Notes under the pieces: model-generated | What the model saw: the letters and a program-made list of their open reading frames with translations, nothing else | Database searches by the model: none | What the model was told of the DNA's origin: nothing | Program-made: the position numbers and the translations under genes | Source: an uncultured Christensenellaceae bacterium | GTDB lineage: Bacteria; Bacillota; Clostridia; Christensenellales; UBA3700 | Assembly: GCA_963931165.1 (NCBI GenBank) | Contig: OZ006985.1 | Span: 655,900 to 719,899, forward strand | DNA: 64,000 bases | Direction of reading: 5' to 3' | In this document: positions 38,343 through 50,046 of the stretch, piece after piece | How positions within the stretch are numbered: position 1 is the first letter of the stretch | How the letters are laid out: each line of letters begins with the position of its first letter

Positions 38343-38490
38343 CGCGAGCAGCGGTTTGAGTCAAGCGTGAAGGTCGATCGAGCGCGGAGCCGATCTAAAA
38401 ACAGAGAAAAAGGCTAAACTGCAAAACGCCGGTAGACTTGTTTGAACAAGAATTGCAAAAGTGTTGCACTTAACTTGAATTCACTGACGC

Positions 38491-38520
38491 AAAAAAGCGG
38501 GGCGGTTCGCCTCGCTTTTT
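38491..38520. terminator. Terminator downstream of trmL (minus strand; bidirectional shape)
   Basis: A6-GCGGGG-CGGTTCG-CCTCGC-T5. Confidence 0.7.
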
Positions 38521-39074
38521 CAATCTTCGTATTGCGTCAATTTGCCGTCTTCTTTCAAGCCGGCGAAGTCGTGCTGCCGGAGATATTCGTAGACGATGAT
38601 CGCCACGCTGTTGGCGAGGTTGAGCGAGCGCGCGTTTGCGCGCATAGGTATGCGCACGCAATCGTCGTAATTGGCGTGCAGGATGTCCTCGGGCAGTCCC
38701 TTTGTCTCTCTGCCGAAAAAGACGTAGCAATCTCTTTGGTAATTCACCTCGCAATGGGTGTGTCTGGACTTGGTCGACGCGTACAAAAATTGCGTGCCCG
38801 TGTTTGTCTTCGTCACTTTGAGGTCGGTCGGCACGTCGCCTGTGTTCACCGCCTTGTCGCCGAAGTTTGCGGCGAGGAAGGCGTGCATGTCGGGATATCT
38901 GCGCACGTCCGAGATCTCCCAATAGTCGAGACCGCTGCGTTTGAGATATTTGTCTTCCCAGCTGAATCCGCACGGCTCGATGACGTGCAGGACCGCGCCG
39001 GTCGCCGCGCAGGTGCGGACGATGTTGCCGGTATTGTTGGGGATCTCGGGGTTGACCAGGACGACGTTGATCAT
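38520..39074 (-). CDS. trmL: tRNA (cytidine/uridine-34-2'-O)-methyltransferase, SpoU/TrmL family
   Basis: MINVVLVNPEIPNNTGNIVRTCAATG and C-terminal RSLNLANSVAIIVYE. ATGA overlap with gltX. It carries a ~20-aa internal insertion relative to the E. coli TrmL as I remember it. Confidence 0.85.
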   Translation of the reverse strand: MINVVLVNPEIPNNTGNIVRTCAATGAVLHVIEPCGFSWEDKYLKRSGLDYWEISDVRRYPDMHAFLAANFGDKAVNTGDVPTDLKVTKTNTGTQFLYASTKSRHTHCEVNYQRDCYVFFGRETKGLPEDILHANYDDCVRIPMRANARSLNLANSVAIIVYEYLRQHDFAGLKEDGKLTQYED

Positions 39075-40519
39075 GCCAGCGCCTCTCGGAGCAGCGCGAT
39101 CGAAAAGTCGAGACGTTTGAGGCTCTCTTCTTTGCCCAGCAATTCCGCCATCTCTGTCGCGCCGCCGGGGGTGGTCGCCGCGCCGGTGATCGCGAGGCGG
39201 AGGGGCAGATAGATCTGACCCGTCTTTCTGCCCTCTCTTTCGGCGAGCGCGTTGAGCGCGGCTTTGAGCGACTCGTCCGTCCACTCGTCGACGGAGGGGA
39301 GCAGCTCGGCGCACTTTTGCAGCACTTCGAGCGCAAGCGGCATCGTGATCTTCATCTTTTTGTGTTCGAACATCGTCGGGTCATACTTGCCGAACGAGCG
39401 CAGGCACTCCACCTTTTCGGGGATCTCGGACAAGATCTCGACGCGGGGGATGAGCAATTTTGCGACTTTGAGATAGTCGTACTTGCCGGCGACCGCGCTC
39501 TCGTCCAAGAATTTGCGCGCGCGCTCGACGAACTTCTCGGGAGTCATCTCCTTGATGTATTCGCCGTTGAGCCAGCGCATCTTTGCCTCGTCGAAGATGG
39601 ACGGCGACTTGGAGATGCCGTCGACGTCGAACAGTTCGATCAATTCGTCCATGCTCAATTTTTCGCGGTCGTTTTTGGGGCTCCAGCCGAGCAGCGCGAT
39701 GTAGTTGACGATCGCCTCGGGCAGATAGCCCTTTGCGAGGAAGTCCTCGAAGTTGGCGTCGCCGTAGCGCTTGGACAGCTTGCGCTGCGCGTCCTTCATG
39801 ATGGGCGGCAGGTGCATATAGTGCGGTCTCTCCCAGCCGAACGAATCGTAGAGCAGATTGTATTTGGGAGTGGAGGAGAGATATTCCATGCCGCGGATGA
39901 CGTAGTTGATGTGCATCAGGTGGTCGTCGACGACGTTGGCGAAGTTGTAGGTCGGCATGCCGTCCGACTTGATGAGAATGTTGTCCTCCATGTCGGCGTT
40001 GGGGACGGCGATGTGTCCGAAGACCATGTCGTCATATTCGCTCACGCCCTCGGTGGGGACGTTTTGGCGGATGACGTACGGTTCGCCTGCGGCGAGGCGC
40101 GCCTCGACTTCTTCTTTGGACAGGCTCAGGCAATGTTTGTCATACTTGTGCACGCCGTTTTCGCCGCCGAGGGTGGCGAGGCGCTCTTTGGTGCAAAAGC
40201 AATAGTACGCGCCGCCCGTCTCGACCAGCTTTTTGGCGTATTCGAGATAGAGGGGCTTGCGTTCGCTTTGGATATAGGGGCCGTATCCGCCGTCCTTGTC
40301 GGGGCCTTCGTCGTGGGAGATGCCGGCGGTCTCGAGGGTGCGGTAGATGACGTCGACCGCGCCTTCGACATAGCGTTCGCGGTCGGTGTCCTCAATGCGC
40401 AGCACGAAGGTGCCGCCGCGCTTTTTGGCGTAGAGGTAGGCGTACAGGCAGGTACGCAGGTTGCCGATATGCATAAAGCCCGTGGGAGAGGGGGCGAATC
40501 TCGTTCTTACTTTTTCCAT
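39071..40519 (-). CDS. gltX: Glutamate--tRNA ligase
   Basis: The HIGH motif is RFAPSPTGFMHIGNLRT and the KMSKS-like motif is KLSKR. Start chosen at MEKVRT with a GAGG SD. Confidence 0.92.
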   Translation of the reverse strand: MEKVRTRFAPSPTGFMHIGNLRTCLYAYLYAKKRGGTFVLRIEDTDRERYVEGAVDVIYRTLETAGISHDEGPDKDGGYGPYIQSERKPLYLEYAKKLVETGGAYYCFCTKERLATLGGENGVHKYDKHCLSLSKEEVEARLAAGEPYVIRQNVPTEGVSEYDDMVFGHIAVPNADMEDNILIKSDGMPTYNFANVVDDHLMHINYVIRGMEYLSSTPKYNLLYDSFGWERPHYMHLPPIMKDAQRKLSKRYGDANFEDFLAKGYLPEAIVNYIALLGWSPKNDREKLSMDELIELFDVDGISKSPSIFDEAKMRWLNGEYIKEMTPEKFVERARKFLDESAVAGKYDYLKVAKLLIPRVEILSEIPEKVECLRSFGKYDPTMFEHKKMKITMPLALEVLQKCAELLPSVDEWTDESLKAALNALAEREGRKTGQIYLPLRLAITGAATTPGGATEMAELLGKEESLKRLDFSIALLREALA

Positions 40520-40691
40520 AATACCTCGCGTGTTTCTATTATGATAGCACAAACCGCGCCGAAAACAAAGGAAAATCGCTCACGCGGCGAAAATTGCGAA
40601 ATTTTTGCGAGGGCATTGCGCGAGACGGCTTGCAAGTGGTATAATCGATACGGATACAAGAGAGGAGAGCGGCTCTGCCGCGCGGGAGAAT

Positions 40692-42152
40692 ATGAAATTG
40701 TCCGTTAAAGAAAAGGTCTGTTATGGTCTCGGGGATCTGTCCGCCAACATTTTGTTCGCGGCGATCTCCTTCTATTTGCTTTACTTTTTTGTCAATGTCG
40801 GCGGGCTTTCGCCCGGGCTGGCGTCGGCGGTGTTCCTCATCGCCAAGGCGTGGGACGCGATCACCGACTACCTGATGGGGCGCATCACCGACAAGACTCA
40901 AAGCAAGTGGGGCAAGCGCAGGGTATATATGCTGTTCGGCGCGCTGCCGTACGGGCTGTGTTTTCTGTTGCTTTGGCTGGTGCCGGGCGGCGCCGATCAA
41001 CAATGGGAAAAGATGCTGTACTACACCTTTGCCTACATGCTGTTCAACACCGCATGGACGGTCGTCTACATCCCGTACAACTCCGTTACCGCCAACATGA
41101 CGGACGACTATGACGAGAGGACTTCGCTCAACGGCATCCGTATTGCGCTCGCCAACGTCGGGCTCATCATCGGCGCGGCGGTGTTCGCGCTGCTTGCGGA
41201 CGGCGTCGAGAGCGTGTTTTACGGCATATTCGGCGACAGCAAGCGCGCCTATCTTCTCGCCGCGGGCATATTTGCGGCGATTGCGGTCGCGATCATGTTT
41301 TTCAGCGGCTACAACATCAAAGAGCGCGTGTCCGACGCGCCCGAGAACGACAAGGGCTTTTTCACCACGCTCAAAGAATTTTTCAAGCTGCCCGAGTTCC
41401 GCAACATCATGATGTGCTACCTGCTCAGCATGGTCGGGTTTGACATCATCATGGCGGTGTTCATGTTCTTCATCAACGACTCGCTCGGCTTCGGCGGCGG
41501 CGCGATGGCGATGATCTTTGTTGCGATCCCGCTCGTCTGCGCGATAGCGTCGTCCGCACTATGGGTCAAGCTCAGCGAGAAGTACAACAAGCACAAGGTC
41601 TACGTCGCCGCATGCGTGTATATGGCGTTCGTGCTGTTGTTCGCGATCTTCGTGCCGGCAGAGACGGTCTGGTCGACGGTGCTTTTGTGTGTGTTCGCAG
41701 GGGCCGGGATGTCGGCTATACAGATCTTGCCCTATGCGGGCGTGCCCGATGTCATAGAGGTGGACGAGTACGTCAACGGCGTCCGCCGCGAGGGCGCCTA
41801 CTACGGCATAACTCAATTCATGTACAAGATCGCCAGCGGCGTATCCATCGCGCTCGTATCGCTCGTACTCGAGGCGTTCGGCTACACCGAGAGCATGGAC
41901 GGCACGGTGATCGATCAGCCCGACAGCGCGCTTATGGCGGTGCGTGTCGTGCTCGGCGTGCTTCCCGGCGTTATCTTCCTTGTCTCTATCGTCTTTTCGC
42001 ACAGGGCGAACATGGGGCGCGACCGCTTCAATATGATCAAAGAGGAGCTTGCCAAGCGCCGCGCCGCGGCGGAAGACGACGTAAGCGGCGAGAGCGCAGC
42101 CGTCGATACCGCCGATAGTGCCTCTCACGGCGGCGGAAAGTTTGCGGAATGA
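40692..42152 (+). CDS. MFS glycoside-pentoside-hexuronide (GPH):cation symporter family transporter
   Basis: GPH signature AWDAITDYLMGRITDKTQSKWGKRR and 12 TM helices. An extended -10 (TGgTATAAT) lies at 40637-40645. Confidence 0.8.
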   Translation: MKLSVKEKVCYGLGDLSANILFAAISFYLLYFFVNVGGLSPGLASAVFLIAKAWDAITDYLMGRITDKTQSKWGKRRVYMLFGALPYGLCFLLLWLVPGGADQQWEKMLYYTFAYMLFNTAWTVVYIPYNSVTANMTDDYDERTSLNGIRIALANVGLIIGAAVFALLADGVESVFYGIFGDSKRAYLLAAGIFAAIAVAIMFFSGYNIKERVSDAPENDKGFFTTLKEFFKLPEFRNIMMCYLLSMVGFDIIMAVFMFFINDSLGFGGGAMAMIFVAIPLVCAIASSALWVKLSEKYNKHKVYVAACVYMAFVLLFAIFVPAETVWSTVLLCVFAGAGMSAIQILPYAGVPDVIEVDEYVNGVRREGAYYGITQFMYKIASGVSIALVSLVLEAFGYTESMDGTVIDQPDSALMAVRVVLGVLPGVIFLVSIVFSHRANMGRDRFNMIKEELAKRRAAAEDDVSGESAAVDTADSASHGGGKFAE

Positions 42153-42171
42153 GAGACCGGTTCATGAAAAG

Positions 42172-42199
42172 CGCGTGCGTTTCGGCGCGCGCGTTTTTT
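42172..42199 (+). terminator. Rho-independent terminator
   Basis: CGCGTGC-GTTTCG-GCGCGCG hairpin followed by CG and TTTTTT. Confidence 0.6.
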
Positions 42200-42213: not shown

Positions 42214-42242
42214 TTGACTTATCCCTTTCTTTTGGTTACAAT
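42214..42242 (+). promoter_or_regulatory. Sigma-A promoter of the polyamine operon
   Basis: TTGACT-N17-TACAAT. Confidence 0.55.
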
Positions 42243-42549
42243 AGGGGTACATGGGATATCACAGAGTATCCATGCAAATATTCGGACCTCCCGCAAGGAT
42301 AAGGCCATACGGACAGCCGGGTCCACTGCCGATCGCAACGCAAGTTGCCTTATTGTGATCGAGTTCGCTCGATCTTATGAGTTGGTTACTCAACAAACAG
42401 TGCGAAAGCACAAACCGCTTGTAAAACAATCAATAAGAGTAGTAAAAGTGTATTTGCTATATAGACTCTGAAGATATCCGTGGAGGATCTCACGGTTGTT
42501 TTACGGGCGATATGCGGAGTGCATGTCGCCTTTCTCATGGGAGACGCTT
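42243..42549 (+). promoter_or_regulatory. Structured 5' leader of ~300 nt upstream of the polyamine operon (candidate cis-regulatory RNA of unrecognised class)
   Basis: Multiple hairpins are present, including GAUCGAG-UUCG-CUCGAUC (42357-42374), GUGC-GAAA-GCAC (42400-42411) and a 10-bp terminator-like stem GGCGAUAUGC/GCAUGUCGCC (42506-42530) followed by UUUCUC. No plausible protein is encoded. Confidence 0.5.
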
Positions 42550-43320
42550 ATGGGAGACAAACTCAAGCTGTACGGCTTCAACAACCTGACCAAATCGCTC
42601 AGCTTCAACATCTACGATGTCTGCTACGCCAAGACCGCGCGCGAACAGCGCGATTACATCGCATACATTGACGGGCAGTACAACTCGGAGAGGCTGACCA
42701 ACATCTTGACGACGCTGACCGACATGATCGGCGCCAAGGTGCTCAACATCGCCAGCCAGGACTACGAGCCGCAGGGCGCGTCCGTCGCGGTGCTCATCGC
42801 CGAGGACAGTATGATCCCGGCGGGGGAGACCCAGCTTGCGCATTTGGACAAGAGCCACGTCACCGTGCACACCTATCCGGAGTTTCATCCCGAGACCTCG
42901 CTCGCGACCTTCCGCGTCGACATCGACGTCGCGACCTGCGGCGAGATCACCCCTCTGTCCACTCTCGACTATTTGATCGATTCCTTTGATTCTGACATCA
43001 TTTCGCTCGACTACCGCGTGCGCGGTTTCACGCGCGACGTCAACGGGCAAAAGCTGTTCATGGATCACGACGTCAAGTCCATACAGGACTACATCGCGCC
43101 CGAGACACTGCGTCGCTACGACGCGGTCGACATCAACGTATATGAGGCGAACATCTACCACACAAAGATGATGGTCAAGGACATCGACCTTCAAAACTAC
43201 CTGTTCAAGACGGACGTCTATGAACTTCCGCCGCGCACGCGGCTCGAGATCATGGACAATCTGCGCCGCGAGATGATCGAGATCTTCAGCGGACGCAACG
43301 TCTTTTCCGCCCGCAAATGA
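42550..43320 (+). CDS. speD: S-adenosylmethionine decarboxylase proenzyme (E. coli SpeD type)
   Basis: [20 protein letters not shown] and the processing-site region [15 protein letters not shown]. Confidence 0.9.
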
Positions 43321-44771
43321 AAAAGCTGTCGCAGACGAGCGCACCCATCTATGAAGCCCTTCAAGAGATGAAGAGCATGCGTCTCGTGCCCTTTGACGTA
43401 CCGGGGCACAAGCGCGGCAGAGGCAATCCCGAATTGACCGAGCTTCTCGGGCAAAAGTGCGTGTCGCTCGACGTCAACTCGATGAAGTGTCTGGACAACC
43501 TCTGTCACCCGGTCTCGGTGATCAGGGACGCGGAACAGCTCGCCGCCGAGGCGTTCGGCGCGCACGGCGCGTTCCTCATGGTCGGAGGGACGACGTCGGC
43601 GGTGCAGACGATGATCTTGACGGTGACCAAGCGCGGCGAAAAGATCATCTTGCCGCGCAACGTCCACCGCAGCGTTATGACCGCGATGGTCCTCAACGGC
43701 GCGGTGCCCGTCTATGTCGACCCCGAGACGGACGACAGGCTGGGGATCTCGCTCGGCATGAGCGTGGACGCGGTCAAGAGGGCGATCGCCGCCAATCCCG
43801 ACGCAAAGGCGGTGCTCGTCAACAATCCCACCTATTACGGCATTTGCAGCGATCTGCGTACGATCGTGTCGCTCGCGCACGCCGCCGGCATGCTATGCAT
43901 CGTCGACGAGGCGCACGGCACTCATTTTTATTTCGGCAAGGACATGCCCGTCTCGGCTATGGCGGCGGGCGCGGACATGGCGGCTGTGTCCATGCACAAG
44001 TCGGGCGGCTCGCTCACGCAGAGCTCGCTGCTTCTGACCGGACCCGCAATGCAGGACGGCTACGTCCGCCAGGTGATCAACCTCACGCAGACGACCAGCG
44101 CGTCCTATCTCTTGCTGTCCTCGCTCGACATCTCGCGCCGCAATCTCGCGCTCAGGGGAGAGCGGGCGTTCGGCGAGGTGATGCGCATGGCGCGCTACGC
44201 CCGCGACGAGATCAACGACATCGGCGATTACTACGCGTACGGCAAAGAGCTTGTCAACGGCGACACCGTGTTCGACTTTGACGAGACAAAGCTGTCCGTC
44301 AACACCCTCGACATAGGGCTTGCCGGCATAGAGGTCTACGACCTGCTGCGCGACGAGTACGACATCCAGATCGAGTTCGGCGACCTCGGCAACATCCTCG
44401 CCTATCTGTCCATCGGCGACAGGGAGAGGGACATCGAGCGGCTTGTCAGCGCGCTCGCGGAGATACGCCGATTGTACAAAAAGTCAAAGGCGGGCTTGAT
44501 GAAGCACGAATACATCGAGCCCATCGTCGAGATGAGTCCGCAGGATGCGTTCTATGCGGACAAAGAGGAGATGCTTCCCATCGAAAAGACGGAGGGAAGG
44601 ATATGCAGCGAGTTCGTGATGTGCTATCCGCCCGGCATCCCCATCCTCGCGCCCGGCGAGCGCATCACGCGCCGCATACTCGACTACATCGCCTACGCCA
44701 AGGAGAAGGGCTGCCAGATGACGGGGCCCGAAGATCCGGCGATCGAGAAGCTCAACGTCGTGGAGGAATGA
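43317..44771 (+). CDS. PLP-dependent Orn/Lys/Arg decarboxylase (probable arginine decarboxylase, B. subtilis SpeA type)
   Basis: [12 protein letters not shown] and the PLP-lysine motif [19 protein letters not shown] overlap with speD. Confidence 0.8.
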
Positions 44772-44774
44772 GCA

Positions 44775-45635
44775 ATGGATTATTGGTTTTCGGAATTGCA
44801 CACCAAGGACGTCAAGCTGTCCATCCGCGTGGACAGGCAGCTTTACAGCGGGCACAGCGACTTTCAGCGCATAGACGTGTTCGACAGCCCCGAGTTCGGG
44901 CGCTTCCTCGTGCTCGACGGCTACATGATGCTCACTCAAAAGGACGAGTTCATCTATCACGAGATGATCGTGCACCCGGCGATGGCGGTGCATCCGCGCG
45001 TCAGGAGAGTGCTGGTGATAGGCGGCGGCGACGGCGGAGCGGTGCGCGAGCTTTGCCGCTACGACGACGTCGAGCACATCGACCTTGTCGAGATAGACAA
45101 ACAGGTCGTCGACGTCAGCCGCGAGTTTTTCCCCGAGGTCACCTGTTCGCTCGACGATCCGCGCGTGACGATACACTACCGCGACGGCTTGCGCTTCGTC
45201 AGAGGCTGCAAGGACGAATACGACCTCATAATCGTCGACAGCACCGACCCGTTCGGACCGGGCGAAGGGCTGTTCACGCGCGAGTTTTACGGCAATTGCT
45301 GCAAGGCTTTGCACGAGGACGGCATCATGATCAATCAGCACGAAAGCCCGTTCTACGACGAGGACGCTCTCGCCTGCCAGCGCGCACACAAGAGGATAGT
45401 GGAGTCCTTCCCGGCGGCGAAGGTCTATCAGGCGCACATCCCGACCTATCCGTCCGGGCATTGGCTGTTCGGTTTCGCTTCCAAGAAGTATCATCCGCTG
45501 CGCGATCTCAACGAGCGCAGATGGAACATGCGCGGGCTCAAGTGCCGCTACTACACGACGACGCTGCACAAGGGCGCGTTCTACATCCCGGCATATGTGG
45601 AGGAACTTTTGAAAAATGTTGAGCAGACAGATTGA
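44775..45635 (+). CDS. speE: Spermidine synthase (aminopropyltransferase)
   Basis: Motifs are RVLVIGGGDGGAVRE and LIIVDSTDPFGPGEGLF. Confidence 0.9.
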   Translation: MDYWFSELHTKDVKLSIRVDRQLYSGHSDFQRIDVFDSPEFGRFLVLDGYMMLTQKDEFIYHEMIVHPAMAVHPRVRRVLVIGGGDGGAVRELCRYDDVEHIDLVEIDKQVVDVSREFFPEVTCSLDDPRVTIHYRDGLRFVRGCKDEYDLIIVDSTDPFGPGEGLFTREFYGNCCKALHEDGIMINQHESPFYDEDALACQRAHKRIVESFPAAKVYQAHIPTYPSGHWLFGFASKKYHPLRDLNERRWNMRGLKCRYYTTTLHKGAFYIPAYVEELLKNVEQTD

Positions 45636-46479
45636 CGCATTCATGGGCTGCGACCGTCCGTTCGAAGAGGCGGACATCGTGATGTTCGGCGCGCCGTTCG
45701 ACGGCACGACTTCCTTCCGCCCCGGGACGAGGTCGGGACCTCGGGCGATACGCGTCGACTCGATCGGGCTTGAAGAGTACAGCCCCTATCTCGACGCGGA
45801 GCTGTCCGAAGTCGCCGTCTGCGACGCCGGCGATCTCGAGCTTGCGATAGGCGACTCTCAGCTTGTGCTCGCCGCGATAGAGGAGGCTGCGGCGGACATA
45901 TTTGCGGCGGGCAAGGTCCCGTTCATGCTGGGCGGCGAACATCTCGTCACGCTCGGCGCGGTCAGGGCGGCGGTGCGCAAATACCCCGATCTGCACATCG
46001 TCCACTTCGACGCTCACGCCGACCTTCGGGACGACTATCTCGGGGTGAAATTTTCGCACGCGTGTGTGTTAAGGCGGTGTTGGGAGCTTGTCGGCAAGGG
46101 CAGGATACACCAATTCGGCATACGTTCGGGCGACAGGTCGGAGTTTGTCTTCGCCGCGTCCGAGACGGACATGCACAAGTTCGACTTCGACGGGTTGGAG
46201 GGGGTCGTACAAGACCTCGCCGGCAAGCCCGTCTACTTTACGCTCGACCTCGACGTGCTCGATCCGTCGGTGTTCCCCGGGACGGGGACGCCCGAACCTG
46301 GCGGAGTGTCTTTTGACAAATTGCGCCGCGCGGCGACTTTTGTCGCGAGAAGGTGCAACGTGATAGGGCTGGACGTCAACGAGCTCAGCCCCCACTACGA
46401 CGCGAGCGGCGCTTCTACCGCCGCGGCATGTAAGATCGTGCGCGAATTGTTGATCGCGCTCGGGATAAAGGAGAAGTGA
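45616..46479 (+). CDS. speB: Agmatinase
   Basis: Ureohydrolase Mn-binding motifs GGEHLVT, HFDAHADLRD and LDLDVLDPSVFPGTGTPEPGG. The start is either 45616 or 45643. Confidence 0.88.
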   Translation: MLSRQIDAFMGCDRPFEEADIVMFGAPFDGTTSFRPGTRSGPRAIRVDSIGLEEYSPYLDAELSEVAVCDAGDLELAIGDSQLVLAAIEEAAADIFAAGKVPFMLGGEHLVTLGAVRAAVRKYPDLHIVHFDAHADLRDDYLGVKFSHACVLRRCWELVGKGRIHQFGIRSGDRSEFVFAASETDMHKFDFDGLEGVVQDLAGKPVYFTLDLDVLDPSVFPGTGTPEPGGVSFDKLRRAATFVARRCNVIGLDVNELSPHYDASGASTAAACKIVRELLIALGIKEK

Positions 46480-46480
46480 A

Positions 46481-47740
46481 ATGGCAAAAGTTTTGATCAT
46501 CGGCTGCGGCGGGGTCGCTTCCGTCGCGATCCGCAAGTGCTGCATGAACAGCGACGTGTTCGGCGAGATAGTCATCGCCAGCCGCACCAAGTCCAAGTGC
46601 GACGACTTGGCGGCAAAACTCGCGGGCAAGACCGCGACGAAGATATCCACCGCCGAGGTGGACGCGGACGACTTTGACGCGCTCGTCTCTCTCATCCGCG
46701 AGGTCAAGCCCGACCTCGTGATGAACATCGCTCTTCCCTATCAGGACCTGACGATCATGGACGCCTGTCTCGAATGCGGCGTCGACTATATGGACACCGC
46801 CAACTACGAGCCCGAAAATCTCGACGATCCCGTCTGGAAGGCGAGGTACGAGAAGAGGTGCAAAGAGCAGGGCTTCACCGCGCTGTTCGACTACTCGTGG
46901 CAGTGGGACTACAAGGAGAAGTTCGAGAAGGCGGGCTTGACCGCGCTGCTCGGTTCGGGCTTCGACCCGGGCGTGACGCAGGTGTTCTGCGCGTACGCTC
47001 AAAAGCATCTGTTCGACACGATCGAGACCATCGACATCCTCGACTGCAACGGCGGCGACCACGGCTATCCGTTCGCGACCAACTTCAATCCCGAGATCAA
47101 TCTGCGCGAAGTTTCCGCGCCGGGATCGTATTGGGAGGACGGCAAGTGGGTCGAGATCCCGCCGATGAGCATAAAGCGCCAATACGACTTTGACGGCGTC
47201 GGAGTCAAGGACATGTATCTGCTCCATCACGAAGAGATAGAGTCGCTCGCCAAGAACATCAAGGGAGTCAAGCGCATCCGCTTCTTCATGACGTTCGGGC
47301 AGAGCTATCTGACGCACATGAAGTGTTTGGAGAACGTCGGCATGCTGTCCACTTCGCCGATAATGTACGAGGGCAGGGAGATCGTGCCGATACAGTTCCT
47401 CAAAGCGCTGCTGCCCGATCCGGCGTCGCTCGGTCCGCGCACCAAGGGCAAGACCAACATCGGCTGCATATTCACCGGCGTCAAGGACGGCAAGCGCAAG
47501 ACCGCCTACATCTACAACGTCTGCGACCATCAGGAGTGTTACAGGGAGGTCGAGTCTCAGGCGATCTCCTACACGACTGGCGTGCCGGCGATGATAGGCG
47601 CCAAGATGCTGCTGACGGGCAAGTGGGACAGGGACGGCGTGTTCACATGCGAGGAGTTCGACCCCGATCCGTACATGGACGAGCTGAACAAGAACGGCTT
47701 GCCGTGGCAGGTGGAAGAGCACCCCGACTTGGTGGAGTGA
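46481..47740 (+). CDS. Saccharopine-dehydrogenase-family enzyme; carboxy(nor)spermidine dehydrogenase
   Basis: Rossmann motif KVLIIGCGGVASVAIRK. Size is ~419 aa. It is adjacent to the decarboxylase partner. Confidence 0.8.
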   Translation: MAKVLIIGCGGVASVAIRKCCMNSDVFGEIVIASRTKSKCDDLAAKLAGKTATKISTAEVDADDFDALVSLIREVKPDLVMNIALPYQDLTIMDACLECGVDYMDTANYEPENLDDPVWKARYEKRCKEQGFTALFDYSWQWDYKEKFEKAGLTALLGSGFDPGVTQVFCAYAQKHLFDTIETIDILDCNGGDHGYPFATNFNPEINLREVSAPGSYWEDGKWVEIPPMSIKRQYDFDGVGVKDMYLLHHEEIESLAKNIKGVKRIRFFMTFGQSYLTHMKCLENVGMLSTSPIMYEGREIVPIQFLKALLPDPASLGPRTKGKTNIGCIFTGVKDGKRKTAYIYNVCDHQECYREVESQAISYTTGVPAMIGAKMLLTGKWDRDGVFTCEEFDPDPYMDELNKNGLPWQVEEHPDLVE

Positions 47741-48849
47741 TGCGCACGCCCTATTTCGAGATAGACGAGGCGGCGCTCATCCGCAACTTGGAGATATTGA
47801 GCGGAGTACGCGAGGCGGCGGGCTGCAAGATTTTGCTCGCCCAAAAGGCGTACTCCGCTTTTTGCACCTATCCGCTGATAGCGCGCTACTTGGACGGCAC
47901 GACCGCGAGCGGGCTTTACGAAGCGCGCCTCGGCAAGACGCGTTTCGGCGGCGAGACGCACGTCTTTTCGCCTGCCTACAACGATGAAGAGTGGGACGAA
48001 TTGATGGAGTATGTCGATCACATAATATTCAATTCACCGACACAGGCACGAAAATTTTTGCCGCGAGCAAAGGCGGCTGGCAAGCAGGTCGGGTTGCGGC
48101 TCAACCCCCAATTTTCCACCCAAAGAGGGCACGGCATCTACGACCCGTGCGGCGACTTTTCGCGGCTGGGGACGACGGCGGACGAGCTGCCCGAAGACGT
48201 CGCCGAGATGTTGGACGGCGTGCACATGCACACCCTCTGCGAGCAAAATTCGGACGATCTCGCATCGACGGTGGACGCGCTCGAGGCGAGGTTCGGCGGC
48301 TTGCTCAAAAGGTGCAAGTGGATCAATTTGGGTGGGGGTCACCACATCACGCGCAAGGACTACGACCGCGACAGGCTGGTCAGGGTCGTCAAGCGGCTTC
48401 AAGACAAGTACGGCGCAGAAGTCTACTTGGAGCCGGGCGAGGCGGTCGTGCTCAACGCGGGGGCGTTGGTCTGCCGCGTAGAGGACATCGTGCGCAACGG
48501 CATGGACATCGCGATCGTCGACGCGTCGGCGGCGTGTCATATGCCCGACGTGTTGGAGATGCCCTATCGTCCGCCTCTCGAGGGGAGCGGAGAGCCGGGG
48601 AAGAAGGCGCACACCTATCGCCTGGGCGGACCGACATGCCTTGCCGGCGACGTGATCGGCGACTACTCTTTCGACGCGCCGCTCGCGGTCGGGGACAGGC
48701 TCAGGTTCCTCGACATGGCGCTCTACACGATGGTCAAGACGAACACGTTCAACGGCATGCGTCTGCCGTCGATATGCGTGCGTCACGCCGACGGCACGCT
48801 CGAGACGGTGAGGGAATTCGGCTACGACGAGTTCGAGCGCAGGCTTTGA
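47740..48849 (+). CDS. nspC: Carboxy(nor)spermidine decarboxylase
   Basis: TGATG overlap with the previous gene. Alanine-racemase-fold decarboxylase motifs are WINLGGGHHITR and YRLGGPTCLAGDVIG. Confidence 0.8.
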   Translation: MRTPYFEIDEAALIRNLEILSGVREAAGCKILLAQKAYSAFCTYPLIARYLDGTTASGLYEARLGKTRFGGETHVFSPAYNDEEWDELMEYVDHIIFNSPTQARKFLPRAKAAGKQVGLRLNPQFSTQRGHGIYDPCGDFSRLGTTADELPEDVAEMLDGVHMHTLCEQNSDDLASTVDALEARFGGLLKRCKWINLGGGHHITRKDYDRDRLVRVVKRLQDKYGAEVYLEPGEAVVLNAGALVCRVEDIVRNGMDIAIVDASAACHMPDVLEMPYRPPLEGSGEPGKKAHTYRLGGPTCLAGDVIGDYSFDAPLAVGDRLRFLDMALYTMVKTNTFNGMRLPSICVRHADGTLETVREFGYDEFERRL

Positions 48850-48927: not shown

Positions 48928-50046
48928 ATGGGTCTTTTCGATTTTTTGAGAAAGCAATATCGCAAGGTCATACAATGGGAGAATGACAATCCTCAATCCA
49001 TTGTGTGGAAATATCCTTTGGAGCGCAAAGAGGAGATCATGCGCAATTCCGTGCTGGTCGTCCGCGAGGGGCAAAAGGCGATGTTCATCCAAGAGGGCAA
49101 ACTTGCCGACGTGTTCGGACCGGGCACCTACAAGCTCGAGGATCTCAAGAACATCCCGCTTTTGACCGCGCTCTACAATTGGAAATACTTCTGGGAGACG
49201 CCGTACACGGGCGACATCTACTTCATCTCGACCAAGCAATTCATCGACAACAAGTGGGGTACGTCCAACCCGGTGATGATGCGCGACAAGGAGTTCGGCA
49301 TGGTCAGGGTCAGAGGTTTCGGCGTCTATTCCTTCTCGGTCGGCACGCCTACGGCGGCGATGAACGAGTTGTTCGGTTCTATGGGCGAGCTGACGGTCAA
49401 GGACGTCGACGACTACTTCAAGAAGATCATCGTGTCCGAGCTGTCCACCGCGATCGCGGAGTCGGGCATCCCGGCGATCGATCTTGCGATGCACTATGAC
49501 GAGCTGTCCGACATCACCCGCCAGAAGATGGCGGAAGACTTCGCCAAGATAGGCATCGAGATCGACGCGTTGTACATCGAGAACATCTCGCTGCCCGAAG
49601 AGGTCGAGAAGATGATGGACAAGCGCACGTCCGTCGGCGTGATGGGCGGCGCGATGCAGGGCTATGCGCAGATGCAGGCGGTCGAGGCGATGCGCGACGC
49701 GGCAAAGAATCCGGGCGGACTCGCAGGCGCGGGCGTCGGAGTCGGAGCGGGCTTGGGCATCGGCAAGATGTTCGCCGACAACATGTCGGGCATAGGTGAG
49801 GACGACGGCAAGGCGACCTGTCCGCATTGCGGAGCCAAGGTCAAGAAGAGCGCGAAGTTCTGCCCCGAGTGCGGCAAGCCGATGGTCGAGACCGTCGAGT
49901 GTCCGGGCTGCCACAAGCAGGTCAAAAAGGGTGCGAAGTTCTGCCCCGAGTGCGGCGCGTCTTTGGTCGCCAAGTGCCCCAAGTGCGGTAAAGAGGTCAA
50001 GCCGGGCGCCAAGTTTTGTCCCGAATGCGGAGAGAAGCTGTCATGA
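48928..50046 (+). CDS. SPFH (band-7/flotillin-like, YdjI-like) domain protein with three C-terminal zinc-ribbon repeats
   Basis: SD is AGGAGG. The body is SPFH-like. The C-terminal repeats are CPHCGAKVKKSAKFCPECG, CPGCHKQVKKGAKFCPECG and CPKCGKEVKPGAKFCPECG. Confidence 0.75.
   Translation: MGLFDFLRKQYRKVIQWENDNPQSIVWKYPLERKEEIMRNSVLVVREGQKAMFIQEGKLADVFGPGTYKLEDLKNIPLLTALYNWKYFWETPYTGDIYFISTKQFIDNKWGTSNPVMMRDKEFGMVRVRGFGVYSFSVGTPTAAMNELFGSMGELTVKDVDDYFKKIIVSELSTAIAESGIPAIDLAMHYDELSDITRQKMAEDFAKIGIEIDALYIENISLPEEVEKMMDKRTSVGVMGGAMQGYAQMQAVEAMRDAAKNPGGLAGAGVGVGAGLGIGKMFADNMSGIGEDDGKATCPHCGAKVKKSAKFCPECGKPMVETVECPGCHKQVKKGAKFCPECGASLVAKCPKCGKEVKPGAKFCPECGEKLS

Follow-up and report, generated by a model that had tools for sequence, protein, structure and literature searches.

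What is the function of the gene-free stretch of about 300 nucleotides (nt) that lies between a promoter and speD, the first of six polyamine genes, in an uncultured Christensenellaceae bacterium? The locus is part of a 64,000-nt stretch of contig OZ006985.1, which as a whole we call the window, and positions 42243 to 42549 had been described in an earlier note as a highly structured leader that might be a novel riboswitch or attenuator and, alternatively or in addition, might encode a proline-rich, ribosome-stalling peptide in an upstream open reading frame (uORF). The promoter, the helices, the open reading frame (ORF) and the speD start listed in that note were all present where it had placed them. 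Our analysis indicates that the leader is probably a cis-acting, transcription-attenuating riboregulator of the ldcC family, working as an OFF riboswitch that senses a polyamine, with spermidine as the likeliest candidate.

Positions 42284 to 42332 matched Rfam RF02440 (SpF59/ldcC RNA) over model positions 1 to 54 of 54, with a score of 61 bits against a gathering threshold of 37.2 (E = 1.6e-8 for the whole window). Both hallmarks of the ldcC motif were found in the window, namely a hairpin with a large, asymmetric and conserved bulge (AAGGCCAUACGGACAGCCGG) and the 3' tail UGCCGA, and bases 42301 to 42322 were identical to the invariant columns in 116 aligned sequences. Weinberg et al. (2017, NAR 45:10811, PMC5737381) described the motif as "a hairpin with a bulge" that is widespread in Firmicutes, with rare occurrence in Spirochaetes, and located in the 5' untranslated regions (UTRs) of genes for arginine, ornithine and S-adenosylmethionine (SAM) decarboxylases and of potA, and they tied it to polyamine homeostasis. 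The window leader has such a location, in the 5' UTR between the promoter (42214 to 42242) and the polyamine gene speD (42550), and the leaders closest to it, among the matches listed, were those of Oscillospiraceae and Flavonifractor-like Clostridia (such as L047, L110 and L044). The earlier note had itself taken a clear hit to a known Rfam family as grounds against novelty, and the RF02440 match refutes its proposal of a new family on those grounds; the leader is a member of the known ldcC family. No SAM-clan, T-box or any other riboswitch model matched between 42100 and 42700 even at E ≤ 10. When the 3' 150 nt of the window element and of eight diverse relatives were searched against Rfam 15, other families gave chance-level matches only, including DUF805 RNA, which was rejected at 17 bits against a threshold of 51 bits. 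In the literature searched, no ligand or mechanism has been reported for the ldcC motif, and we found no paper on it later than that of 2017.

Comparison with about 200 relatives showed conservation over some four times the length of the database model; the published 54-base motif forms only one arm of this larger unit. The leader from 42249 to 42560 folded at -103.1 kcal/mol, compared with -82.7 +/- 4.6 kcal/mol for shuffled sequences (z = -4.4; none of 100 shuffles was as good), while the antisense strand reached a z of only -2.8. A scan with a 20-base ldcC core, with one genome per species, yielded at least 120 loci, and those among the matches listed came from Bacilli, Clostridia and one Negativicute. 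In blastn comparisons with these loci the window leader aligned from 42300 to 42471 (about 180 nt), well beyond the 49-nt motif, at 75 to 81% identity to nearly all of them, including Paenibacillus, Neobacillus, Priestia, Oscillospiraceae and Lachnospiraceae, and in the multiple alignment near-invariant blocks extended to ...UAUUUGCUAUAUAGACUCUGA at 42471. RNAalifold on a global MAFFT alignment of crudely bounded elements misaligned the variable hairpins and gave an unusable consensus structure; the structure was therefore defined by hand on a cleaned alignment, where ten helices were derived from the alignment together with the minimum-energy fold. They form a four-way junction of P2, P3, P4 and P5, in which the ldcC hairpin is one arm, and P5 leads to a three-way junction of P5, P6 and P7, with P7 enclosing P8 and P9. 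A covariance model of this structure (R1; built from 43 sequences, with 225 positions and 62 base pairs) matched the window and 99 genome loci, almost all of them end to end, with 100 to 243 bits. The window itself was matched from 42262 to 42471, over positions 1 to 225, with 150.1 bits (E = 2.4e-34).

Comparative evidence for the extended structure was obtained in several ways. In the R1 alignment, 91.7% of cells were paired compared with 83.3% in shuffles (0 of 500 as high), compensatory changes were present at 44 of the 62 pairs, and the covariation score was 0.241, falling to 0.03 to 0.07 when the 3' partners were slid by one to three columns. Because this alignment had been fitted to the model, the count was repeated on a sequence-only MAFFT alignment, where 86.9% of cells were paired, 23 pairs showed compensatory changes and the score was 0.176 versus 0.04 to 0.08. 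In a blind mutual-information scan, all of the top canonical covarying pairs fell within the proposed helices. True covariation supported P2, P3a, P3b, P4, P6, P8 and P9. Several short helices of the earlier note thus found a place in the conserved structure: GGACC/GGUCC is P3a of the ldcC motif (98.6% paired), the 7-bp stem with the UUCG loop is P6 (98% paired, with 6 of 6 pairs covarying) and GUGC-GAAA-GCAC is the variable, covarying hairpin P9. In treating the whole leader as structured, rather than a 54-nt hairpin, the note came nearer to the truth than the databases, and it was right to see a structured cis-regulatory element of the riboswitch or attenuator kind before a polyamine operon and to give weight to the terminator-like stem.

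The fate of another proposed helix, the long-range pairing GAUAAGGC/GCCUUAUU, was mixed. Its core, AAGGC (42301 to 42305, the start of the invariant P3 bulge) with GCCUU (42347 to 42351, the end of P4 and start of P5), is complementary in 81 to 99% of 101 relatives. However, the AAGGC side never varies, so covariation cannot test the pairing, and it competes with P4 and P5, the compensatory changes of P4 falling exactly where the pairing breaks. It is a possible pseudoknot, of the H type and involving P3a, or a possible pairing that replaces the base of P4. Elsewhere in the domain, columns 319 and 443 of alignment A4 (window positions of about 42375 in J6/7 and about 42427 in J7/5) showed an A.C to G.U exchange (64 versus 19 sequences), a pattern that may reflect a tertiary or junction pair of wobble geometry or, alternatively, merely two or three clades. 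An additional variable hairpin separates P4 from the UGCCGA tail (for example ...UGCCGAAAACCGC-UUGC-GGUUGGCAAC...) in potA-type members from Oscillospiraceae (L007, L030, L037, L041, L051, L055, L065-L067, L090, L091, L101, L103 and L112), and one locus (L076:4338-4583) carried a tandem duplication of the P8 region (GGCAACUCAAUUGCC then GGUUACUUCAUAACC).

In the reverse direction, metagenome contigs were scanned for a 20-base pattern taken from the 3' part of the domain, which gave at least 120 loci, 109 of them evaluable. The ldcC core was located 118 to 190 nt upstream in 93 of them, and at least eight of the remaining 16 (L129, L133, L161, L185, L201, L204, L206 and L221) lacked P3 entirely, P2 being followed at once by P4. 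L130, L135 and L173 represent another P3-less type, and such variants account for about 8 to 10% of the metagenomic relatives among the loci listed. They matched R1 end to end over 153 to 178 nt with 112 to 135 bits (61 bits for the L130 type), and they kept P1, P2, P4 to P9 and the terminator (for example L201:3287-3451). In the eight P3-less variants scanned, the gene downstream encoded AdoMetDC (speD) or an OKR-type decarboxylase; the contig of L221 had no downstream ORF. Thus, the part known from the literature and Rfam is naturally dispensable and the remainder is the constant part. P4 of the L130 type has the form UAAGGC-GAUUGGA-GCCUUA and reuses AAGGC, which in normal members starts the P3 bulge.

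The association with polyamine genes was nearly complete. Among the 107 loci listed, the first downstream ORF was a gene of polyamine synthesis or uptake in the same orientation in 105. It encoded an OKR-type decarboxylase in 34 loci, AdoMetDC in 29, a saccharopine-dehydrogenase-like protein of the carboxyspermidine dehydrogenase type in 25 and a PotA-type ABC ATPase with a TOBE domain in 17. The common denominator of these genes is the making or import of spermidine, which argues for feedback by the end product.

The stem at 42506 to 42530 that the earlier note had likened to a terminator is the homologue of one conserved in relatives, corresponding to ACAGGC...GCCUGUUUUUU in the close relatives L110, L097 and L044, and its energy in the window was -18.5 kcal/mol including one extra G-U pair. 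With a fold-based detector an intrinsic terminator was found 30 to 175 nt past the domain in 93 of 97 loci, compared with 48 of 107 in an earlier scan that demanded perfect stems. The window is atypical, being one of the few loci with a weak U-tract and having speD start only 20 nt past it, whereas relatives have UUUUUU and a spacer of 30 to 200 nt. The sequence of the arms is itself conserved (5' RCAAGU..., 3' ...ACUUGY, then a U-run), which is unusual for terminators. The 3' arm mimics the 3' strand of P7, and the 5' arm is therefore complementary to that strand; within the aptamer, the 5' arm found its best match centred on P7-3' in 57 of the 93 loci and on the adjacent P9-3' or J7/5 in nine more. 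Lineage-specific extensions preserve the pairing, with GCGCAGACUUGUG facing CGCAAGUCUGCAC in Subdoligranulum-like members and CUUGUAAAA facing UUUUACRGG in the clade of the window. Terminator arms paired better with their own aptamer than did the arms of other loci (-15.5 versus -13.1 kcal/mol; Wilcoxon p = 4.5e-9).

In the window, the switching strand at 42416 to 42431 has two alternative partners, one within P7 inside the aptamer and the other at 42494 to 42509. The latter pairing, a predicted antiterminator of 16 contiguous base pairs, had an energy of -23.2 kcal/mol, compared with -17.3 +/- 2.3 kcal/mol for a shuffled arm (3 of 200 shuffles as good), and it takes away the bottom 4 base pairs of the terminator at 42506 to 42530. 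The 5' end of the leader offers a second choice. The GGAUA/UAUCC helix of the earlier note is the inner part of a hairpin, H0, whose loop contains the 5' strand of P1, so that H0 and P1 are mutually exclusive. Of 29 distinct leaders in the "CCAUGC" clade, to which the window belongs, 26 form an equivalent of H0, with covariation in its inner part (GAUAU/GUAUC, GGAA/UUCC and GGGAA/UUUCC), and forcing the antiterminator in the fold caused H0 to form on its own. H0 also competes with the 3' strand of P0, a helix of the minimum-energy fold, and similar complementarity between 5' leader and 3' flank, judged by eye, was present in L009, L116, L097, L111 and L020. Between domain and terminator lies the hairpin CCGUG/CACGG, which is present in the window as described before but is not conserved, the linkers of relatives being unrelated in sequence and length; bases 42494 to 42495 and the U-run that follows it pair with the switching strand. 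The comparative aptamer helices with the terminator (-101.4 kcal/mol) and H0 with the antiterminator (-100.1 kcal/mol) were nearly iso-energetic. These models indicate mutually exclusive structures that are coupled to the aptamer, as in the expression platform of a riboswitch. The minimum-energy fold additionally pairs UUCUCAUGGG (42532 to 42541) with CUUAUGGGAG (42547 to 42556), which is predicted to occlude the ribosome-binding site (RBS) and the start codon, and control in the window may thus be partly translational.

The proposed mechanism is as follows. Transcription would start at about position 42249, and the nascent RNA could fold into the ten-helix domain at 42262 to 42471. We infer that a ligand drives this folding, that the ligand is a polyamine and that its binding switches expression OFF. 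The folded domain would hold CGCUUGUAAAACAAUC (42416 to 42431) in P7 and its flank, the terminator (42506 to 42530) would form, and speD and the five genes that follow would be shut off, by a block of transcription or, in the window, possibly of translation initiation. With the domain not stabilized, H0 (42250 to 42274) would hold the 5' strand of P1, the switching strand would pair with 42494 to 42509 as the 16-bp antiterminator, the base of the terminator would be disrupted and the operon would be read through. By analogy, the gene set and the precedent of the SAM-I-variant spermidine riboswitch make spermidine or a close polyamine the likely signal.

Several observations weigh against an OFF riboswitch of this kind. 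Rfam assigns RF02440 the type "Gene; sRNA". The alignment behind the main statistics was fitted to the model, and P5 and P7 are almost invariant, their support consisting of conserved complementarity and A-U/G-U exchanges rather than full compensatory changes. The terminator of the window has a degenerate U-tract (UUUCUCAU) and was not called by a consensus scan. The advantage of the antiterminator over shuffled arms was modest in many loci (2 to 6 kcal/mol), and the switching strand is internal to the aptamer instead of being the 3' strand of P1, which is unusual and topologically awkward. Finally, the ldcC hairpin with its invariant bulge is absent from about 8 to 10% of relatives, and the most obvious candidate for a binding pocket is hence dispensable.

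Two other explanations fared poorly. The earlier note had suggested that the proline-rich peptide of the ORF at 42251 to 42358, with its GPP and PGP motifs, stalls ribosomes in response to polyamines in the manner of SpeFL or the AdoMetDC uORFs, which we now regard as scarcely credible. The ORF exists, and its frame reads RPYGQPG over the invariant core in all relatives, but the comparison refutes its conservation: an in-frame upstream ATG without an intervening stop was found in only 27 of 101 relatives, at distances of 4 to 49 codons and with varying ORF ends (18, 27 and 13 of 101 for the three frames), and in the closest relatives the homologous ATG is directly followed by TGA. Moreover, the 23 invariant bases cover every wobble position, the variable-length hairpins P3b and P4 shift the frame, and the ATG has no Shine-Dalgarno sequence and is only about 2 nt away from where the transcript is predicted to start. 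An 85-codon ORF (42214 to 42471), whose stop coincides with the end of conservation, was rejected as well, as its frame is not conserved. Sequence comparison thus indicates that the constraint on the leader acts at the RNA level and that no uORF is conserved. It is also highly improbable that the element is a free-standing gene for a trans-acting small RNA (sRNA) of the SpF59 type, placed before speD incidentally. The Rfam type would suit an sRNA, and transcription from the promoter to the terminator would produce a separate RNA some 280 nt long. However, 105 of 107 loci lie directly before polyamine genes in the same orientation, no second promoter was called in the window, and the terminator arms co-evolve with an internal strand of the aptamer, which is an attenuator signature; a prematurely terminated leader would, in RNA sequencing, resemble an sRNA.

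The other two explanations keep the RNA platform and differ in what it senses. The effector could be a trans-acting RNA-binding protein or other macromolecule that reports polyamine status, in the style of PyrR, TRAP or the L-box, and this we consider unlikely. The domain is large (about 210 nt), its long invariant single strands (such as UCAAUAAGAGUAGUAAAAGU and the 20-nt P3 bulge) could be recognition sites for a protein, the literature searched names no ligand for the family, and the P3-less variants show that the RNA is modular. Yet the operons, which start with speA-type, speD, carboxyspermidine dehydrogenase-type or potA genes, share no encoded protein; this excludes autoregulation and would call for a distinct regulator that Bacilli, Clostridia and Negativicutes have all kept. 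No gene in the window suggests one. The invariance of bases and the multi-junction architecture are, moreover, typical of metabolite aptamers. That bulk polyamine or Mg2+ shifts the balance between fold and antiterminator without a dedicated pocket appears improbable. The window conformers lie only about 1 kcal/mol apart, polyamines generally stabilize compact RNA folds (PMC10853860), and some relatives do without the hairpin that carries the invariant bulge, all of which would suit a non-specific polycation sensor. The extreme invariance of unpaired segments across phyla would, however, be unexpected for an electrostatic switch, and the associated genes specifically make or import spermidine rather than serving the homeostasis of Mg2+ or of cations in general.

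An OFF riboswitch for spermidine invites comparison with the validated one, a SAM-I variant with a consensus from 13 representatives (Salvail et al., 2023, Cell Rep, PMC10853860). The two share overlapping genes (an ldcC/speA-type decarboxylase, speE and speB), their occurrence in Firmicutes and, as predicted for the window RNA, OFF logic with competing terminator and antiterminator. In contrast, their folds are unrelated, with a different helix topology and no match of the window RNA to the SAM-I model at E ≤ 10; the SAM-I variant is rare (13 representatives) whereas the window RNA type was found at 120 or more loci in each of two collection scans; and ligand binding has been demonstrated for the former and is only predicted for the latter. 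Like classical termination riboswitches of Firmicutes (SAM-I, lysine and T-box leaders), the window element has a putative multi-junction aptamer followed by an intrinsic terminator whose 5' arm can pair alternatively with an aptamer strand. Those systems switch through the 3' strand of P1, whereas the strand proposed for the window (P7-3'/J7-5) belongs to an internal helix, some 50 nt short of where the aptamer ends on its 3' side; in addition, a clade-specific H0 competes with P1. SpeFL and the eukaryotic AdoMetDC/AZIN uORFs likewise control polyamine-pathway genes from the 5' leader, but they are conserved translated peptides, and the window leader has no conserved uORF, peptide or start codon. 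Compared with the published ldcC motif, the window element has the same full-length motif (42284 to 42332), the same position in the 5' UTRs of decarboxylase, SAM decarboxylase and potA genes and the same mainly Firmicutes distribution. However, both the publication and Rfam model the motif as a 54-nt hairpin with a bulge and a possible pseudoknot, while the unit described here spans about 210 to 225 nt and ten helices, is followed 3' by a terminator/antiterminator conserved in sequence, and in natural variants lacks the ldcC hairpin but keeps all the rest. Neither Rfam 15 nor the literature searched was found to contain the extended architecture, the switching strand or the P3-less variants.

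A broader and more tentative proposal, which we hold possible without favoring it, is that the RNA of about 210 nt, and not the 54-nt hairpin, is the aptamer of a widespread second natural class of polyamine (spermidine) riboswitch that controls speA-type, speD, carboxyspermidine dehydrogenase-type and potA operons across Bacilli, Clostridia and Negativicutes. The sensor would then lie largely in the P1-P2/P4-P9 scaffold, because variants without the hairpin keep the same genes. If this is true, constructs made from the published model would lack three quarters of the domain, which could explain why no ligand has been reported since 2017.

The features of the leader and the operon are listed in the table.

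Features of the speD leader and the operon downstream (window coordinates; all on the + strand)
Feature	Position	Sequence or description	Basis
Sigma-70-type promoter	42214..42242 (+)	TTGACT (-35), 17-nt spacer, TACAAT (-10)	
5' hairpin H0	42250..42274 (+)	CAUGGGAUA (42250-58) pairs with UAUCCAUG (42267-74); G42255 bulged	
Whole conserved domain (putative aptamer), P1-P9	42262..42471 (+)	about 210 nt	Covariance model, covariation, blastn
P1	42262-67 / 42465-70	long-range closing helix	
P2	42274-80 / 42451-57	long-range closing helix	
ldcC motif proper (P3)	42284..42332 (+)		RF02440 full-length match
P3a	42284-88 / 42320-24	GGACC / GGUCC	
P3b	42289-91 / 42297-99	UCC / GGA	
Invariant 20-nt P3 bulge	42300-19	UAAGGCCAUACGGACAGCCG	
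ldcC 3' tail	42325-32	ACUGCCGA	
P4	42335-39 / 42344-48	hairpin	
P5	42349-55 / 42431-37	long-range, UUAUUGA / UCAAUAA	
P6	42357-63 / 42368-74	UUCG hairpin	
P7	42376-82 / 42417-23	long-range, UAUAAGUU / AACUUGUG	
P8 (nested form in the window)	42384-87 / 42413-16	hairpin within P7	
P9	42400-03 / 42408-11	variable hairpin GUGC-GAAA-GCAC within P7	
Switching strand	42416..42431 (+)	CGCUUGUAAAACAAUC; P7 3' strand, J7/5 and first base of P5 3' strand	
P0 3' strand	42473..42479 (+)	GAUAUCC pairs with GGAUAUC (42254-60); extends P1 in the folded-aptamer state	Minimum-energy fold
Linker hairpin	42478..42495 (+)	CCGUG...CACGG, non-conserved	Terminator-like by consensus scan
Antiterminator 3' strand	42494..42509 (+)	GGUUGUUUUACGGGCG; overlaps first 4 bases of terminator 5' arm	
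Terminator hairpin	42506..42538 (+)	GGCGAUAUGC-GGAGU-GCAUGUCGCC (42506-30), then degenerate U-tract UUUCUCAU	
RBS and speD start	42539..42552 (+)	GGGAGA (42539-44); ATG (42550-52)	
Regulated six-gene operon	42550..48849 (+)		Pfam matches
speD (AdoMetDC)	42550-43320 (+)		Pfam AdoMet_dc
Orn/Lys/Arg decarboxylase	43317-44771 (+)		Pfam
speE	44775-45635 (+)		Pfam
Agmatinase	45616-46479 (+)		Pfam
Saccharopine-dehydrogenase-like (carboxyspermidine dehydrogenase type)	46481-47740 (+)		Pfam
Orn_DAP_Arg_deC decarboxylase	47737-48849 (+)		Pfam

The promoter was the sole sigma-70-like site between 41900 and 42800, matching 10 of 12 consensus positions and placing the predicted transcript start at about 42249, and relatives carry TTGACA...TATA(C/A)T at an identical spacing from the conserved leader. 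The gene upstream, for a transporter of the major facilitator superfamily (MFS), ends at 42152 and has its own terminator (42171 to 42194). The 15 N-terminal residues of speD aligned with the N termini of the proteins of relatives, and, given its six genes, the operon encodes both known routes to spermidine, the one that depends on decarboxylated SAM and the one through carboxyspermidine. The sequence ATGGGAGAC is present twice, 13 nt apart, at 42537 to 42545 and 42550 to 42558 (ATGGGAGACGCTT|ATGGGAGACAAA); the second copy is the start of speD and the first provides its RBS (GGGAGA), and a small duplication or deletion seems to have joined the tail of the terminator to the start region. Immediately 3' of the operon (48928 to 50046) is a gene whose product is an SPFH/Band-7 protein bearing several zinc-ribbon domains at its C terminus. 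The ORFs at 38442 to 39212 and 39317 to 40708, the two longest listed on the + strand upstream of the MFS transporter, matched no Pfam family at E ≤ 0.001; they overlap minus-strand ORFs of comparable length, and the true genes may be on the opposite strand. In a Peribacillus genome, the ldcC-type leader has an unrelated c-di-GMP-I riboswitch (L068:5106-5195, minus strand, 75.6 bits) about 4 kb away.

Few cations in the cell are as abundant as polyamines. Only one class of polyamine riboswitch, the SAM-I variant (PMC10853860), has been validated, and it is rare, whereas many gut Clostridia and soil Bacilli are among the Firmicutes in which the ldcC motif is common. The ten-helix architecture, the switch through an internal strand and the natural lack of P3 in some variants define exactly where constructs for ligand tests should begin and end and which mutations they should carry, and they call for a revised Rfam family, the public model being seriously incomplete. 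In this genome, the element predicts feedback control of the six-gene polyamine operon.

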